This document shows positions 3,441 through 13,764 of a DNA stretch of 42,272 nt, piece after piece. The number at the start of each line of letters is the position of its first letter. Positions within the stretch are counted from its first letter, which is position 1. A model generated the notes under the pieces. The model did no database searches, was not told where the DNA came from, and saw only the letters and a list, made by a program, of their open reading frames with translations. The position numbers were made by a program, and so were the translations under genes. The stretch is from a virus (taxonomy: Duplodnaviria; Heunggongvirae; Uroviricota; Caudoviricetes): IMG/VR virus record IMGVR_UViG_2529292726_000021; one strand, given 5' to 3'.

Positions 3441-3580
3441 ACAGGGAAAAGGTTGCATCCCGCTACAGAAACGGCTGGGTTGCCTTCGGGGAACGGCTGG
3501 AGGTTTTCAGGGAAACGGTCGAGTTGCCTGTGTGGATTTCGGGAAAAGGCTCGATGCCGGTTCAGGAACGGTGGCGTACC
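3441..3580. repeat. iteron-like direct repeat array 1 (six ~21-23 bp imperfect units)
   Basis: Units GGGAAAAGGTTG, AGAAACGGCTGG, GGGGAACGGCTGG, GGGAAACGGTCG, GGGAAAAGGCTCG, GGAACGGTGGCG spaced about two helical turns apart. Confidence 0.6.
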
Positions 3581-6636: not shown

Positions 6637-6761
6637 CAGGGAAATTTTCAGAAGCGGCGAGGAACGTATTCATGAGCCGACGGGGGAACGGCCAGGATTT
6701 TTTCGGGAAACGGCTGCATTCGCCTTTGTGTAGAAAAAACATCGGGAAGCTGGTGGAATCC
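6637..6761. repeat. iteron-like direct repeat array 2
   Basis: GGGGGAACGGCCAGG, GGGAAACGGCTGCATTCGCC, GGGAAGCTGGTGGAATCC share the GGRAAMGGYTG core of array 1. Confidence 0.55.
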
Positions 6762-6897: not shown

Positions 6898-7134
6898 ACG
6901 CGAGCGGATACGGAGCAAAACAAAATGCCGATCCGCGCCGACAAATAAACGCGGATCATAAAGCAAGACTAAAAGCCAATAATTAACCATACTCTATAGC
7001 GCAATATAACGCGTTTTAAGCGCGTTAATGTGTTAAGTAATGGGTATATACTGGTAAGGATATAAAAGCTCGTCTGTGGCGTTATTTTGGCGCTTATTTT
7101 TATGTTGTTGGAGTGAGTTAAAGACAATAAAAAA

Positions 7135-7214
7135 GCGCCACTATTGGCGCGTTATGGTGGAAGTATTGGAAACGAAAAAAGCGCCCATAGTGGGCGCTAT
7201 TGTTTTTATTTTTC
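7135..7214. terminator. tandem hairpins; bidirectional terminator
   Basis: GCGCCA-ctat-TGGCGC (7135-7150) and GCGCCCA-tag-TGGGCGC (7181-7197) flanked by A runs on one side and T runs on the other. Confidence 0.65.
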
Positions 7215-7433
7215 TAAGTGAATATTAAAGCCAGCGTTTAAAAATTCTTGAAGCATTAAAGTAACATCAGCTTCATTGATTCCTGCGCGCGCTCTATGTT
7301 CTACGTCATTGATGTTTATTTTAAACGTTGTTTCATCAACCACTTCAGAACTTAGAGCATATCCAGCTAAACCAGCAATATCATAAACAAGAGTATGATT
7401 ATTGATATTTACGCCAGAGATGAAAATAACCAT
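7206..7433 (-). CDS. hypothetical protein C (75 aa), AT-rich cassette
   Basis: ATG with AAGGAA 8 nt upstream on minus strand; ends just before the bidirectional terminator. Confidence 0.55.
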   Translation of the reverse strand: MVIFISGVNINNHTLVYDIAGLAGYALSSEVVDETTFKININDVEHRARAGINEADVTLMLQEFLNAGFNIHLEK

Positions 7434-7454
7434 GATTAAGTTCCTTAAAAAAAA

Positions 7455-7658
7455 TTAAATAGAATTTTGAAGTTTTCCGATTAATGCGCTTAAACGTAAG
7501 TATTCACGTTTACGCTTGCAATCTCGCTTGCTGTTAAGCAAATCAGAAAACGTAAAATTTAATTGGTCGCGTTGCGCGATTAAATCATTGATTAATTCTA
7601 GTTTATAAGCGCGATACTTTGCGCGATATTCCGCGCGGATCTTGTCATAGCTGACCAT
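7455..7658 (-). CDS. hypothetical basic protein B (67 aa), AT-rich cassette
   Basis: Start moved to ATG 7658 with AAGGAG 8 nt upstream; the track start at 7703 lies inside an intergenic hairpin. Confidence 0.5.
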   Translation of the reverse strand: MVSYDKIRAEYRAKYRAYKLELINDLIAQRDQLNFTFSDLLNSKRDCKRKREYLRLSALIGKLQNSI

Positions 7659-7706
7659 TTTTAAAGCTCCTTTAAAGCGCCCATAGTGGGCGCTTGATTC
7701 CATTAA

Positions 7707-8357
7707 TTACGCTTTGAAAGCATCAGCTAAATAATTGTAGAAATCATTTTTAATGAAGCGATATTGCTGAGTACCAGCTTTCGCGCTCCCAGCTCCTTTG
7801 ACTTTTTCAACAAGTCCAAGACGTTCGCAAAGATTGATCAACTGGTTGGCTTGAGTATAGCCAGCGTCCAATTTAATTTCACACGCTTTTTTAGCTTCAT
7901 TCATTAAATCGAAAACAGCGCCATTCGTGAACGTGTCGATCTCGTCGTTAATCATATCGATTAAAGCGAATACACGAGATCCAGACATATCAGCGACGGA
8001 ATAAACACATTTACCAGCTTTAATGGATTTAACCAGATAAACCAGTTTTTCCAGTGAATAACTATTAGTCATTGCATCACGGAAAAATACTTCTGGCGCT
8101 TGTTTACTTGCTTTAATCGCATAGTAGAAAACAGAGCATAATTTTTCGTCTTCTACTGCGTTTACGACGTTGTTGATGAAGTAAGCAAGTTTCGTGGTCG
8201 CAGCTTGCATGTTTGCTTTGTCTGCTTTTGTGTGCGTACCATTTTTATAATGTTCGTTATATGTTTGAGTTGCCAGATCTGCTTTTTCGCGCAGTTCATC
8301 GGATACAATGGAAGCAGCTTCAATGATGGATTTTTTAGAAATGATAATGTTAGTCAT
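7707..8357 (-). CDS. hypothetical protein A (216 aa), AT-rich cassette
   Basis: ATG with AAGGAA upstream; no recognisable catalytic motif; AT-rich codon usage. Confidence 0.6.
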   Translation of the reverse strand: MTNIIISKKSIIEAASIVSDELREKADLATQTYNEHYKNGTHTKADKANMQAATTKLAYFINNVVNAVEDEKLCSVFYYAIKASKQAPEVFFRDAMTNSYSLEKLVYLVKSIKAGKCVYSVADMSGSRVFALIDMINDEIDTFTNGAVFDLMNEAKKACEIKLDAGYTQANQLINLCERLGLVEKVKGAGSAKAGTQQYRFIKNDFYNYLADAFKA

Positions 8358-8655
8358 GATTTTATTCCTTAGTATAAATATTAAAATTTAACTCAAGAAA
8401 GAAAGTGTTTTGCACTCGTTCCTGATGCGTTCAATTATCGATACGCGAAAAAAGATTGCAAGTGTTTTTTTTAAGTTTTTTTGCAGGGGTGAAAGTCCTA
8501 GAAATAAAAGTTAGATCGTCGAAGGTGTTCCCTAAATAAATAATAAATTCCGGCTTTTGACCTTATATATTTATACGGGGGAGAATTGAATGAGTGTTAA
8601 ACGAATGGCATGTAAAATAATAACCGGACTTAGCCGATTATTACCCTTATAGAAA

Positions 8656-9174
8656 TTAAAACGGAAGGATTCGTTCAACCCAATCGAAGAAAATAAGTAT
8701 TTTTCTACCGTCTTCCAACTTAAGTGTGACTAGACAGGCGTCAACGCCATCTGACGTTCCCTCAATTTCGCGACCGTCTGCCATGTAGACCCTTATAGAT
8801 TTGCCGTTTTGGTAAGCCTGACGACATATCTTAAAAAAGTCACGACGTGATGGCTGATTAACCATCTGTTCATTGTTTAGCGTTAGTCGACCTGTGAATG
8901 AAGTGTCAACCTCTTCTATGCCCGACTCAATTGTGCTAATGCGCTCAAGAGGGAGCCTTATACGATTTGTGTTGCTAAGCGGATCTGGTGTGAGGTTCAG
9001 CTTATTTCTTGCGCTCAATAGCCCGTAGACATACATGCAAAACACTTGGCCGTCTTCGAGAGTGACTCTTACAGGAAATTTTGCACTCCGCCAGAAGAGC
9101 AAGGTGCGCTCAGCATGTTCGTAGTCTCGCGGCCAGACTTCAGCCGGTATGCCGTAGGTGATGTCTTTAACCAT
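8656..9174 (-). CDS. hypothetical protein (172 aa) with internal repeat
   Basis: ATG with AAGG upstream; two related segments (VRVTLEDGQVFCMYVY and VTLKLEDGRKILIFFDWV). Confidence 0.55.
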   Translation of the reverse strand: MVKDITYGIPAEVWPRDYEHAERTLLFWRSAKFPVRVTLEDGQVFCMYVYGLLSARNKLNLTPDPLSNTNRIRLPLERISTIESGIEEVDTSFTGRLTLNNEQMVNQPSRRDFFKICRQAYQNGKSIRVYMADGREIEGTSDGVDACLVTLKLEDGRKILIFFDWVERILPF

Positions 9175-12204: not shown

Positions 12205-13764
12205 CTAATCTCGTTTCAGAACTCCAAAATCGAATGCGCCATCAATAGGCAATACACCTTCCGCAAAGCCAGGTGTGGTGTCGATGATGTGTTTTCGCTC
12301 ATAAGAGTGAGACAACAGGTATTTGTTGCTAATGTCAATGAAATCAGTGATAAAACACACGTTTGCCTGATTCTTCTTGGCTCGTAAGCCACGACCGACA
12401 CGCTGCCTCATTTCAACTTCTGCTTTCCCACCACCAGCAAGAATGACCGCACCAACGCTTGGCACATCAACACCGACATCCAGAATAGTCGAGCCTATTA
12501 AAACATCTATTTCGCCAGACGCTAAACTGTTCAGCTTTGCTTGCCTTGTCGACTGGTTCGATTCCCCATAAATGAAGTCAACTCTAAGGCCGGACTCTTT
12601 CATCATTTCCATCAGGATTTGCCCGTGGCGTTTAAGACGAACCAGAGTCATACAATTGAGAGAATGTTGCTTATAGAGCAATGCTTCGCGAACAATGGCC
12701 TCATTACGTCCCAAATTATACACGATCCCCAACTGATAAGCCTTTTGGTAGGCGGTGCTCATACCAACTCTAAAATTGAGGTGTTTGTTGGCAAGTTCTG
12801 CCTTGATTCTGGCCTCGTCCGGCTTGTAGGCAACTTTATGATAAAGGAAGTATGGTTTTGCCAGAATGCCTCGATCAATCAGGTACTTTTCTGTGACTTT
12901 AATTTCAATTCGCCCGGCCACAGCCATCAGACGCATGTTGGCTTCTGTAGAATCCTTCATGAACGGCGTGGCCGTAAGCGCCAGACGATAGTCTGCGTTC
13001 ACACATAATCTGGCAATGTCATAGAAATTAGAACCTGAAGACTCATGCGCCTCTTCCAGAATAAGCAGAGACACACTTGAAAGGAAGCGTTTCACCAAGT
13101 CCCGACGTTTGAGGTGGTAGCTCTTCTTATCTGGAGTTGCATCGCGTGGTGGTTCTTCAAGGAAACTTGCCAGAGTTTGAACTGTAGCGACGTTGATATG
13201 TCGTGATACCTGGAACTCACCAGAGCCAATGACTCCAACCTTTTGGTCTTTTAACCACGGTTCGCCATTTTCGGCGCGGTAGTCGATGGATCTCTGGAAG
13301 TTTTCGGCCATCTGAAACATCAGAACAGAGCGAGTTGTTAAAAATAATGTCATTCGACCGATACGTGCAGCCGCTTTGCAGGCAACATTAGATTTCCCGC
13401 CACCAGTAGCGATCTGCGCAATCATCATTCCCTCTCGAACCAGTGTTTCCACAGTCTGATCCTGATACGCATAATCAGGATTGTATGGGAATGGGTTAAC
13501 CGCCGGATTTGGTTTACCAAGCGCCGGGGCTTTGTCTTTGCGGATATGAACACATTTGATGCCCGCCTTGTTCAAGTTCGCCGCTACAGGCTTGGCAAAG
13601 CCAGCAGGGAACGAGTTTTTACTCCAGTTGAACATTGTGCTTGTGCCCTTCCAGTCGCCAGTCTCGACTTCGTAGCTCAACATCTGTTGCACCAGTTGCT
13701 TTACCTTGTCATCTGCGCCAGAAATAAGCGCATTAACTGCGTTAGATACAATCCGAACAGTCAT
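12205..13764 (-). CDS. superfamily 2 DNA helicase (DEAH-type)
   Basis: Motif I ATGGGKS, motif II LEEAH, motif III TATP, motif VI RVGRGLR in order; AAGGAAAGAGG upstream of ATG. Confidence 0.75.
   Translation of the reverse strand: MTVRIVSNAVNALISGADDKVKQLVQQMLSYEVETGDWKGTSTMFNWSKNSFPAGFAKPVAANLNKAGIKCVHIRKDKAPALGKPNPAVNPFPYNPDYAYQDQTVETLVREGMMIAQIATGGGKSNVACKAAARIGRMTLFLTTRSVLMFQMAENFQRSIDYRAENGEPWLKDQKVGVIGSGEFQVSRHINVATVQTLASFLEEPPRDATPDKKSYHLKRRDLVKRFLSSVSLLILEEAHESSGSNFYDIARLCVNADYRLALTATPFMKDSTEANMRLMAVAGRIEIKVTEKYLIDRGILAKPYFLYHKVAYKPDEARIKAELANKHLNFRVGMSTAYQKAYQLGIVYNLGRNEAIVREALLYKQHSLNCMTLVRLKRHGQILMEMMKESGLRVDFIYGESNQSTRQAKLNSLASGEIDVLIGSTILDVGVDVPSVGAVILAGGGKAEVEMRQRVGRGLRAKKNQANVCFITDFIDISNKYLLSHSYERKHIIDTTPGFAEGVLPIDGAFDFGVLKRD

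Follow-up and report, generated by a model that had tools for sequence, protein, structure and literature searches.

Relation to described cassette systems

T4-type phages carry promoter-early stem-loop (PeSL) cassettes (Arbiol et al. 2010, PMC2839356; Comeau et al. 2014, PMC4122927), which contain a strong sigma-70 promoter and are present in about 50 copies per genome in hyperplastic regions (PMC2839356; PMC4122927). By analogy, this regulatory cassette is the closest known counterpart of the locus that we describe here, in which a gene A is followed by a slot for small genes of two families, B and C. In both cases, a conserved intergenic stem-loop of the terminator or attenuator type ends in the Shine-Dalgarno (SD) sequence of the next gene, the repeated motif flanks small non-essential ORFs of unknown function, and the motif marks the ends of the insertions, deletions, and replacements seen among close relatives. 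However, the repeat analyzed here has no sigma-70 early promoter, and the cassettes would therefore depend on read-through from A. Other differences are that only one locus with one to three copies exists in our case, and that the repeat resides in a temperate phage-plasmid and not in a lytic myovirus.

With its GC-rich stem and short loop, the repeated hairpin also resembles intrinsic terminators; its terminal copy and a second terminator, T2, both have a U-tract. The internal copy is placed like those inter-cistronic hairpins that act as partial terminators or 3' stabilizers and thereby set differential expression. In contrast to such terminators and inter-cistronic hairpins, both positions share one and the same 19-nt sequence, and no compensatory change is seen despite proteins that are down to 48% identical.

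A third group to be compared are the morons. Expressed from the prophage, classical morons come with a promoter and a terminator of their own. Lambdoid morons and short conserved boundary ('linker') sequences have reportedly been described by Juhala et al. 2000 and Clark et al. 2001. Our locus shares with these systems the position of small accessory genes between conserved genes, as well as mosaic joints at short conserved gene-boundary sequences, but its cassettes are promoterless, and A and C', a divergent allele of C, are both silent in lysogens of the related phage Cyrano.

We consider it probable, at roughly 70%, that the locus is a single phage-plasmid operon composed of a core gene A and a terminator-bounded slot for exchangeable cassettes. 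In the plasmid (lysogenic) state, such an operon would be silent; its transcription would start at a promoter upstream of A and run leftward. The slot holds zero, one, or two promoterless small genes, which would be expressed only when RNA polymerase reads through the upstream hairpin copy, and transcription would be stopped by the last hairpin copy with its U-tract, with T2 as a back-up. As a partial terminator and/or a 3' stabilizer of the A message, the internal hairpin would result in an excess of A over B and C. Homologous or unequal crossovers between co-resident relatives would be resolved at the stem-loops, the SD leader, and T2, and could thus swap, stack, or delete cassettes, with a working stop-hairpin-SD junction being restored automatically.

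The phage-plasmid and the genes of the locus

The window, by which we mean the whole analyzed stretch of 42,272 nucleotides, is an SSU5/pHCM2/pMT1-type phage-plasmid of E. coli. The E. coli plasmid CP025888.1 is 100% identical to it, and the phages SSU5, Cyrano, and PhiR41_1 are relatives of the element. SSU5-type phage-plasmids are common in Enterobacteriaceae, and pMT1 of Yersinia pestis and pHCM2 of Salmonella Typhi belong to the same family.

As the initial annotation had recognized, the locus contains three co-oriented, tightly spaced genes with SD sequences. A (7707..8357, 216 aa), B (7455..7658, 67 aa), and C (7206..7433, 75 aa) are all encoded on the minus strand, and AAGGA or AGGAG is found 8-9 nt upstream of the ATG in each of them. 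A mechanical ORF list starts B at an upstream ATG, which would give 82 aa, but this ATG is out of frame in relatives (locus L008) and the annotated B homologues all have 204 nt, and B is therefore a protein of 67 aa.

A is a core, family-specific protein of SSU5-type phage-plasmids, and an exhaustive HMMER search with its profile gave only 23 representatives, all of one narrow family. In the predicted fold of A, a helical domain at the N-terminus is followed by a C-terminal winged helix of the ArsR/MarR type; members of this class bind palindromes as dimers. B belongs to phrog_6145 and is predicted to be a small helical protein; a match to DUF6899 was found below threshold only. In PHROGs, B is named 'MIT family metal ion transporter', which was rejected as an inherited mis-annotation. 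For C, of which many alleles exist, a ferredoxin-like/ACT-like beta-alpha-beta-beta-alpha-beta fold is predicted, i.e., a generic ferredoxin-like domain. Searches of Pfam, PHROGs, NCBIfam, and PADLOC with the three proteins yielded only PHROG families of unknown function, and sequence searches of the PDB with A, B, and C gave no match. B and C are best regarded as dispensable accessory proteins, presumably of the lytic or entry phase.

The upstream neighbor of A, which lies outside the cassette, is the FljA-like gene R (8656..9174, minus strand, 172 aa), whose product matches Pfam PF03614 (Flag1_repress) over its full length with an E value of 1.3e-68. The R-A pair is kept in all relatives, including a Pectobacterium plasmid. 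Another neighbor of the locus, gene D, is phrog_1641, and a lipoprotein and a helicase are annotated near the locus in relatives. A promoter-like site upstream of A (TTGCAA-16-GATAAT; 8434..8461, minus strand) is a consensus match only, and promoter-like matches in this region were not in excess over shuffles. The direct repeat AAGnnnGnAAGTGTTTT overlaps this site at 8452-8468 and follows it at 8395-8411.

The repeated hairpin and the predicted terminators of the window

The sequence AAGCGCCCATAGTGGGCGCT is present exactly twice in the window, at 7179-7198 and 7675-7694. This 20-bp repeat had been correctly noted in the initial annotation, albeit with coordinates that deviate by 2 nt at the start and 1 nt at the end. 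The full exact repeat has 21 nt (7178-7198 and 7674-7694, 496 nt apart), and each copy contains a perfect 19-nt hairpin with a GC-rich stem of 8 bp and a short loop. The pattern AGCGCC-N3-9-GGCGCT was not found elsewhere in the 42-kb window, and the promoter region of A contained no copy of the palindrome.

The internal copy between A and B (7674..7694, minus strand; hairpin AGCGCCCACTATGGGCGCT at 7676-7694) is the left boundary of the slot. Its hairpin lies 12 nt past the stop codon of A, has a dG of -15.5 kcal/mol, and merges on its 3' side into the SD sequence of B (GGGCGCTTTAAAGGAG; TTTAAAGGAG), with 3 U only before AAAGGAG and hence no full U-tract. The right boundary is formed by the terminal copy, T1 (7168..7198, minus strand), whose hairpin at 7180-7198 (dG -14.1 kcal/mol, z -3.9) is followed by the U-tract TTTTTCGTTTCC at 7179-7168. 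Only this one of the two repeat copies has a full U-tract (GGGCGCTTTTTTCGTTT; TTTTTCGTTT). The identical hairpins bracketing B and C are thus real, but the first copy is an inter-cistronic hairpin. Behind T1 lies T2 (7125..7150, minus strand; GCGCCAATAGTGGCGC + TTTTTTATTG; dG -10.7 kcal/mol); its stem, GCGCCAATAGTGGCGC, which is followed by TTTTTT on the minus strand, is what had been listed as a variant of the repeat at 7135-7150, and this variant is real. Across the 19-mer and T2, z values of hairpin stability relative to shuffles ranged from -2 to -3.9.

Judged by their stable stems and U-tracts, the terminal copy and T2 are predicted intrinsic terminators; for the last copy, it is the presence of the U-tract that leads to this assignment. 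As the U-tract of the internal copy is shortened by the SD sequence of the next gene, we infer that this copy is a leaky terminator or attenuator and/or a 3' stabilizer, and the attenuation role that had been suggested for it is plausible. Rfam gave terminator-like matches, all of which were sub-threshold.

Conservation of the hairpin among relatives

We surveyed the locus with protein A as the anchor and obtained 83 distinct slot sequences, in which A is 48-100% identical; a contig scan for the locus returned five loci. The 56-nt context of the terminal hairpin was found in 228 of 5426 complete E. coli genomes and was plasmid-borne in every case. A host REP-like or genome-wide repeat was considered and rejected, with no copies in E. 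coli chromosomes and none elsewhere in the window. Within viral contigs, copies of the palindrome are confined to the A locus, where one to three of them occur.

A hairpin directly follows A in 83/83 distinct loci, and the stem is perfect in 161 of 164 hairpins, with no compensatory changes. Column identity is 99.9% in the stem, as compared to 89% at the end of A and 74% in the spacer. The tail of the last hairpin reads TTTTT(C)GT in nearly all loci, and that of the upstream hairpin ends in ..TTTAAGGAG, which is the SD sequence. The distance from hairpin to start codon is 15-20 nt in most loci, which leaves no room for a promoter in the majority of them, and about 55 nt in A-h-C loci of the pMT1/pHCM2 type (h, hairpin); in the window, this interval gave no promoter-like site. 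Strong conservation of non-coding sequence is limited to islands formed by the stem-loops, the SD leader next to them, and T2.

The repeat could in principle be a matter of chance or of a recent local duplication of a terminator without further meaning, as GC-rich terminator stems can look alike and T2 is a similar hairpin. However, a pair of 20-mers like AAGCGCCCATAGTGGGCGCT was absent from 100 shuffles, and both copies are kept in every relative examined, including pMT1 and pHCM2. They are ancient and occur across phage-plasmid lineages sampled from Escherichia, Klebsiella, Enterobacter, Salmonella, and Yersinia, which disagrees with the recent duplication that the initial annotation had considered. 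These comparative data already refute such an origin, the probability of which is negligible.

A stem without any compensatory change is more than a structure-only terminator needs. As it is invariant while A varies from 48 to 100% identity and T2 diverges in distant lineages, a sequence-specific role is conceivable, although we consider it unlikely that the stem is a sequence-specific handle in the form of an R-bound RNA, an A-bound DNA palindrome, or a dedicated recombination site. Binding of the RNA by the FljA-like R would be in line with R being a full-length Flag1_repress protein, a family that blocks translation of the fliC mRNA (PMC2652032). In most loci, the upstream copy is only 2-6 nt away from the next SD sequence, and a bound protein would block initiation there; the gap is about 40 nt in three A-h-C loci of the pMT1/pHCM2 type. 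Binding of the DNA by A would fit the winged helix of A and the 7-3-7 palindrome of the hairpin, and R, A, and the hairpin are neighbors in every case, with the stem lacking covariation where the loop, the spacer, and T2 vary. On the other hand, the Pectobacterium plasmid Drgb1 retains R and A with a quite different terminator behind A, which weakens a strict co-dependence of the hairpin with either protein, and the first hairpin has diverged in a lineage in which A is 53% identical. The loop inverts freely, the same 19-mer is a terminator in unrelated phage contigs, and the palindrome is absent from the promoter region of A. Moreover, continual exchange of hairpin-carrying cassettes could by itself keep the hairpin uniform. 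Recognition of the hairpin by R or A thus appears doubtful. If the stem were such a handle, any small gene landing behind it would be automatically wired into the post-transcriptional or recombinational control of the element, and the slot would serve phage-plasmids, including pMT1 and pHCM2, as a plug-and-play socket that brings accessory genes under regulation. Unless the invariant stem is a protein recognition site, the locus does not represent a new class of mechanism.

Gene content of the slot

The terminator-bounded cassette slot, which we prefer as the explanation, varies in its contents. In the following notation, h denotes the hairpin, X a distant, B-like homologue of B, and C' the divergent C allele. 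A-h-B-h was found in 27/83 distinct loci, A-h-C'-h in 17/83, and A-h-B-C'-h in 15/83, and the slot was empty (A-h) in 9/83. A-h-B-C-h and A-h-X-h-h were present in 4/83 loci each, A-h-C-h in 3/83, and A-h-C-h-C'-h in 2/83, whereas A-h-B-h-h and A-h-X-h were found once each (1/83). The occupants of all 83 loci belong to just two gene families, B and C, and X fills the position of B in a lineage with an A that is 62% identical. For a single A allele (at least 97% identical), the slot had four different contents. In 19/83 loci, no hairpin separates B from C, and not every cassette junction therefore obeys the hairpin rule. The slot behind A thus gains, loses, and exchanges small accessory genes, with two hairpins marking its edges, and the mobile unit of the initial annotation holds in a weaker sense, in that the genes between the hairpins are exchangeable cassettes bounded by stem-loops.

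This makes the locus a compact and well-sampled natural example of the turnover of small accessory genes in temperate elements, in which the stop-hairpin-SD junction would allow unrelated small ORFs to be swapped, stacked, or dropped while the operon stays intact. The B and C families of unknown small genes can be enumerated at the slot, which is a natural place to search for host-takeover or anti-defence functions.

The initial annotation had also suggested a toxin-antitoxin or abortive-infection module, which in the present case would be a three-gene unit with A as the effector, B and C as small partners, and hairpins that set the stoichiometry. A compact operon of co-oriented genes, two of them very small, would agree with this, the element carries other toxin-antitoxin systems, and PADLOC gave one weak match of B to PDC-M47B (E 0.0066). 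However, the co-occurrence of A with B and C, proposed at the time as a check, turned out to be anything but fixed. A was found with B only (27-28/83), with a C-family gene only (20-22/83), with both, with a C-C' tandem, or with neither (9/83), and the plasmid counts are unequal (A 815, B 517, C 414). In Pfam, NCBIfam, and PADLOC, none of the three proteins had an above-threshold match to a toxin, antitoxin, or defence family, and structure prediction gave a winged helix for A and a generic ferredoxin-like domain for C.

Published expression data argue in the same direction; they stem from one relative, Cyrano, which has no B and a C allele that is only 47% identical. In Cyrano lysogens grown in LB, A (CYRAN_113) and C' (CYRAN_112) had log2(fpkm+5) values of 2.3-2.8, which is the floor (PMC9928086). 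They were at the detection floor in LB as were the structural genes, and were up in macrophages at 6 h (PMC9928086, S1 table). In the same lysogen, KacT, RelE, and HicA were well expressed, 9-35-fold over background, and two paired antitoxins reached 14-60-fold (PMC9928086). RNA-seq counts across the internal hairpin of Cyrano were low and inconsistent. As A, B, and C show no obligate co-occurrence, the toxin-antitoxin or abortive-infection interpretation is largely refuted and must be regarded as extremely unlikely. A false lead is thereby removed, as the cassette does not belong to the toxin-antitoxin or defence systems.

Probable recombination at the stem-loops

Slot indels and replacements that end in the motif were seen at the C-h-C' junction, at the left crossover of locus L147, and at empty A-h-D sites. 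The middle hairpin of C-h-C' has its 3' flank from C and its 5' leader from C', which matches the prediction for an unequal crossover. In L147, an E. coli-type C' cassette sits in a backbone of the Enterobacter type; the left crossover of this locus maps to the hairpin/SD leader, and the right one to the T2 stem and not to the identical hairpin. As mosaic breakpoints and the tandem C-hairpin-C' junction fall at the stem-loops, we infer from these sequences that the stem-loops probably also serve as short homology anchors in cassette exchange.

An integron-like system, or another dedicated site-specific cassette system in which a recombinase or transposase recognizes the folded hairpin as its site, would have to be considered as well. 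Promoterless ORFs that each end in a palindrome behind one upstream promoter mimic an integron array, the arrays differ between close relatives, and tandem C-h-C' arrays as well as hairpin-only arrays with a 44-nt period exist. An attC site, however, is an imperfect palindrome of 57-141 bp with extrahelical bases, whereas the palindrome found here is perfect and has 19 nt. No IntI-type tyrosine recombinase and no other integrase or transposase was found among the neighbors examined (R, A, and D, and the lipoprotein and helicase of relatives). The slot accepts two gene families only, and crossovers at the SD leader and T2, in addition to those at the hairpin, look homology-driven. A dedicated site-specific system is thus very unlikely.

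Within the preferred scheme of homology-driven cassette exchange, crossovers inside the flanking genes A and D, without a role of the hairpins, could be behind part of the allele swapping. The hairpins themselves probably also take part in exchange: the loop is flipped (CTA<->TAG) in eight first and eight last copies in different backgrounds, which suggests that the palindrome itself recombines.

Anatomy of the locus and the proposed reading

The initial annotation had described three co-oriented genes, each preceded by an SD sequence, and a repeated 20-mer. Both observations are real, and their details are more regular than it could show. Genes A (8357..7707, 216 aa), B (7658..7455, 67 aa), and C (7433..7206, 75 aa) all lie on the minus strand with an AAGGA or AGGAG box 8-9 nt upstream of the ATG. 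With small coordinate corrections, the 20-mer occurs in exactly two copies in the window, at 7179-7198 and 7675-7694 (0 in 100 shuffles), and the exact repeat measures 21 nt. On the coding strand, the first copy reads TAA-N12-AGCGCCCACTATGGGCGCT-TTAAAGGAG-N9-ATG of B, and the second follows the TAA of C as AAACAAT-AGCGCCCACTATGGGCGCT-TTTTTCGTTTCC; only the second has a terminator U-tract. A hairpin with a T-run, GCGCCAATAGTGGCGC-TTTTTTATTG (7150-7125, termed T2), lies 30 nt beyond the second copy. The predicted RNA hairpins are stable (-14 to -15.5 kcal/mol), and the pattern AGCGCC-N3-9-GGCGCT has no further copy across the 42-kb window. The layout is A, a hairpin, a slot of zero to two promoterless small genes, a second hairpin with its U-tract, and T2, all co-oriented and convergent with gene D (phrog_1641). 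The positions of the stem-loops are fixed and conserved, and the content between them is highly variable.

We propose, with a probability of roughly 0.7, an operon read from upstream of A whose hairpins act as leaky and final stops and as anchors for exchange. Transcription would begin upstream of A, and the internal hairpin would be a leaky terminator and/or a 3' stabiliser, tipping expression towards A and away from the cassette genes, with the terminal hairpin and T2 ending transcription ahead of D. The same conserved blocks would offer short homology anchors for the swapping, stacking, and deletion of cassettes between co-resident relatives. The locus is, in this sense, ordinary but neat phage-plasmid genome architecture.

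Over the 1.7-kb region, identity is 100% with E. coli plasmid CP025888.1 (112 kb), 82-93% with the phage-plasmids PhiR41_1, Cyrano, and SSU5, and ~75-81% with relatives from Klebsiella. From these matches, and from ORFs of tail and head size in the remainder of the window, we identify the element as a phage-plasmid of the SSU5/pHCM2/pMT1 type.

Slot content and expression

A tblastn search of 72,556 plasmids yielded 815 records with A, 517 with B, and 414 with C, the matches to C being mostly alleles of <60% identity. Annotated relatives carry A+B+C' (PhiR41_1; C' is a divergent C allele), A+C' (Cyrano), A+B (SSU5, Klebsiella, Enterobacter), A+C (pMT1 of Y. pestis and pHCM2 of S. Typhi), or A alone (a divergent Klebsiella plasmid). 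A sample collected through protein A rather than through the hairpin, and supplemented with plasmids, yielded 83 distinct forms of the interval from A to D. With h for the hairpin, C' for C alleles of 43-54% identity, and X for a distant B homologue, these were A-h-B-h (27 of 83), A-h-C'-h (17), A-h-B-C'-h (15), the empty A-h (9), A-h-B-C-h and A-h-X-h-h (4 each), A-h-C-h (3), A-h-C-h-C'-h (2), and A-h-B-h-h and A-h-X-h (1 each). Four different contents stood behind one A allele (at least 97% identical). The three-part system of A, B, and C suspected earlier thus did not survive the co-occurrence check that the initial annotation itself had named as able to refute it.

Expression could be followed in Cyrano, an LF82 phage-plasmid with a 98% identical A and a slot holding C' only, using the RNA-seq values of a supplementary table (PMC9928086). 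After overnight growth in LB, CYRAN_113 (A) and CYRAN_112 (C') were at the floor, with log2(fpkm+5) of 2.3-2.8, as were the terminase and capsid genes; in macrophages at 6 h, the two genes were up to 4.4-5.7, along with the capsid gene (PMC9928086). The KacT, RelE, and HicA toxin genes of Cyrano were expressed 9-35-fold over background, and two antitoxins listed with them 14-60-fold (PMC9928086). As A and C' are at the floor in LB and rise with the capsid gene, the operon's behaviour is that of a lytic or early unit under repression and not that of an addiction or defence moron. From classical morons, the cassettes also differ in having neither their own promoter nor expression in the lysogen (Cyrano data).

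A self-contained toxin-antitoxin or abortive-infection cassette, as envisaged in the initial annotation, is thus unsupported and very improbable: the three genes form no fixed set across the 83 loci, searches of Pfam, NCBIfam, and PADLOC tied none of them to a known family of toxins, antitoxins, or defence proteins, and Cyrano A and C' are silent in overnight LB when the TA genes of the element are well above background.

A weak promoter-like site lies upstream of A at 8461-8434. The direct repeat AAGnnnGnAAGTGTTTT, at 8395-8411 and 8452-8468, overlaps and trails this site and could, by its position, be the operator at which A is repressed in lysogens.

Conservation of the hairpins

A hairpin stands directly 3' of A in all 83 loci, and every slot is closed by one. 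The 7-bp core GCGCCCA/TGGGCGC is perfect in 161 of 164 hairpins, variation being restricted to the outermost pair and the loop. Column identity is 99.9% in the stem, in comparison to 89% in the last 45 nt of A, 85% in the loop, and 74% in the spacer from stop codon to hairpin. The exact 19-mer and its tail TTTTTCGTTTCC are kept in lineages with A only 48% or 62% identical, in which T2 is not conserved; in a lineage with A 53% identical, the first hairpin has drifted and the terminal one is canonical. By these comparisons, the hairpins are ancient and unusually uniform, which refutes the earlier suggestion of a recently duplicated unit and leaves chance or recent duplication as their origin with a negligible probability.

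The T-run is shortened by the SD where a gene follows the hairpin (TTTAAGGAG, AGTTTTAAGGA, and similar), and TTTTT(C)GT stands after the last hairpin in nearly all loci. In the window and most relatives, only 15-20 nt separate hairpin and start codon, so that these cassettes have no room for a promoter and need read-through; at ~55 nt, the spacer is longer in A-h-C loci of the pMT1/pHCM2 type. Inverted loops (CTA to TAG or the reverse) occur on different backgrounds, 8 times in a first copy and 8 times in a last copy, indicating that recombination or template switching takes place in the palindrome itself.

Of 5426 complete E. coli genomes, 228 contain the 56-nt hairpin context; every copy is on a plasmid of 105-120 kb and none on a chromosome, and we therefore rejected a host repeat. 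Rfam contains no family matching the hairpin. The exact 19-mer was found in 94 viral contig stretches, all but two of which were the A locus. In these two, the related non-SSU5 viral contigs L014 (IMGVR_UViG_3300031925_000025, 12915-12933) and L101, AGCGCCCACTATGGGCGCT lies 24 nt past the stop of an unrelated gene and is followed by TTTCTTATAT; there it looks like the terminator of that gene.

It is conceivable, if unlikely, that the hairpin is recognised sequence-specifically. The stem lacks covariation, an SD adjoins each upstream copy, A has a predicted winged helix, and the next gene upstream of A, termed R (8656-9174, minus strand), matches Pfam PF03614 Flag1_repress (FljA; E 1.3e-68) over its full length; this family blocks fliC mRNA translation (PMC2652032). 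However, the R-A pair of the Pectobacterium plasmid Drgb1 carries a different terminator, the loop flips freely, and the 19-mer serves as a putative terminator elsewhere. The one feature for which the proposed reading does not account, the perfectly invariant stem, leaves a small probability for something more specific.

Proposed cassette exchange at the stem-loops

The middle hairpin of the C-h-C' tandem is flanked on the left by the C 3' flank (TAAAAACAAT) and on the right by the C' leader (TTTAAGGAGCTTAATCATG), which in sequence is exactly the product that an unequal crossover between a terminal hairpin and the first hairpin of another element would leave. Empty sites (A-h-D) exist as well. 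Locus L147 is, by its alignment, a clean mosaic. In the flanks it resembles the Enterobacter-type locus L143 (92-100% through A, 80-92% downstream), and the cassette enclosed by its hairpins is 90-100% identical to the E. coli-type locus L130. Three-way alignment placed the left switch within the hairpin/AGTTTTAAGGA leader and the right switch within the T2 stem. Crossovers thus appear to resolve in a few conserved non-coding islands (hairpin, SD leader, and T2), as would be expected for homology-driven exchange. In 19 loci, the B-C junction lacks a hairpin (TAA-T7-8-AAGGA), from which we infer a loss of the palindrome. Two viral contigs with A 48% identical (L031 and L062) carry gene-free arrays of 2-3 tandem copies of the hairpin plus TTTTTGTTTCCGCTATAAAGCCACC with a 44-nt period, as unequal crossover or slippage of replication at the palindrome could produce.

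We consider an integron-like site-specific system highly improbable: no recombinase was seen among the neighbouring genes examined (R, A, D, and, as annotated in relatives, a lipoprotein and a helicase), the palindrome is a perfect 19 nt, and the slot involves two gene families only. From integron cassettes, the A locus differs in having neither an integrase among these neighbours nor an attC-like site.

Among described systems, the closest is the PeSL (promoter-early stem-loop) cassette of T4-type phages, a conserved intergenic motif with a terminator stem-loop that ends in the SD of the next gene (PMC2839356). Small ORFans are flanked by PeSLs, whose recombination with one another gives rise to indels and replacements (PMC2839356). 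The A locus resembles them in its stem-loop, its junction with the SD, its small genes of unknown function, and its breakpoints, but its hairpin has neither the promoter nor the genome-wide multiplicity, and we therefore did not file it as a PeSL. We rate the proposed arrangement as hairpin-punctuated modular shuffling, a variant on an already known kind of system.

Proteins and neighbouring elements

The model of C (pLDDT 91) is a beta-alpha-beta-beta-alpha-beta ferredoxin/ACT-like domain with generic structural matches only. Distant C homologues (~30-35% identical) occur outside phage-plasmids (pEC4115, NC_011351.1, and loci L194 and L197), some on conjugative plasmids of 37-58 kb, where they lie among small unknown genes and beside HicAB and ParA-like genes, and one in a metagenomic contig beside DUF3560, LPD29, and SSB genes. 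Such neighbourhoods are typical of entry and establishment regions of mobile elements, and they hint at this setting, not at a function.

B is predicted to be helical and matches DUF6899 only below threshold. Its homologues are named 'MIT family metal ion transporter (CorA)' in the SSU5 records (SSU5_119, NC_018843/JQ965645) and in PHROGs (phrog_6145). As B has only 67 aa and no Pfam or NCBIfam transporter match, we rejected this name, which is almost certainly a propagated error. A 93-aa 'ABC transporter' a few genes off in several relatives looks similarly mis-named.

R is labelled 'transcriptional regulator/repressor' in relatives, and the pair of R and A is conserved from E. coli to a Pectobacterium plasmid. 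The Cyrano homologue of R is at ~2x the element background in LB overnight and is clearly expressed otherwise (log2 7-8). A flagellin repressor on a phage-plasmid could change host motility, antigenicity, or sensitivity to flagellotropic phages.

An element of ~100 nt with GGGGAACGG-N13-GGGAAACGG has two copies in the window, at 3443-3550 and 6637-6750 (+), the latter within a 540-nt gene-free stretch between D and T2, where CCGTTTCCC motifs are conserved in relatives. Candidates for its role are a site bound by a protein and a promoter of some other class.
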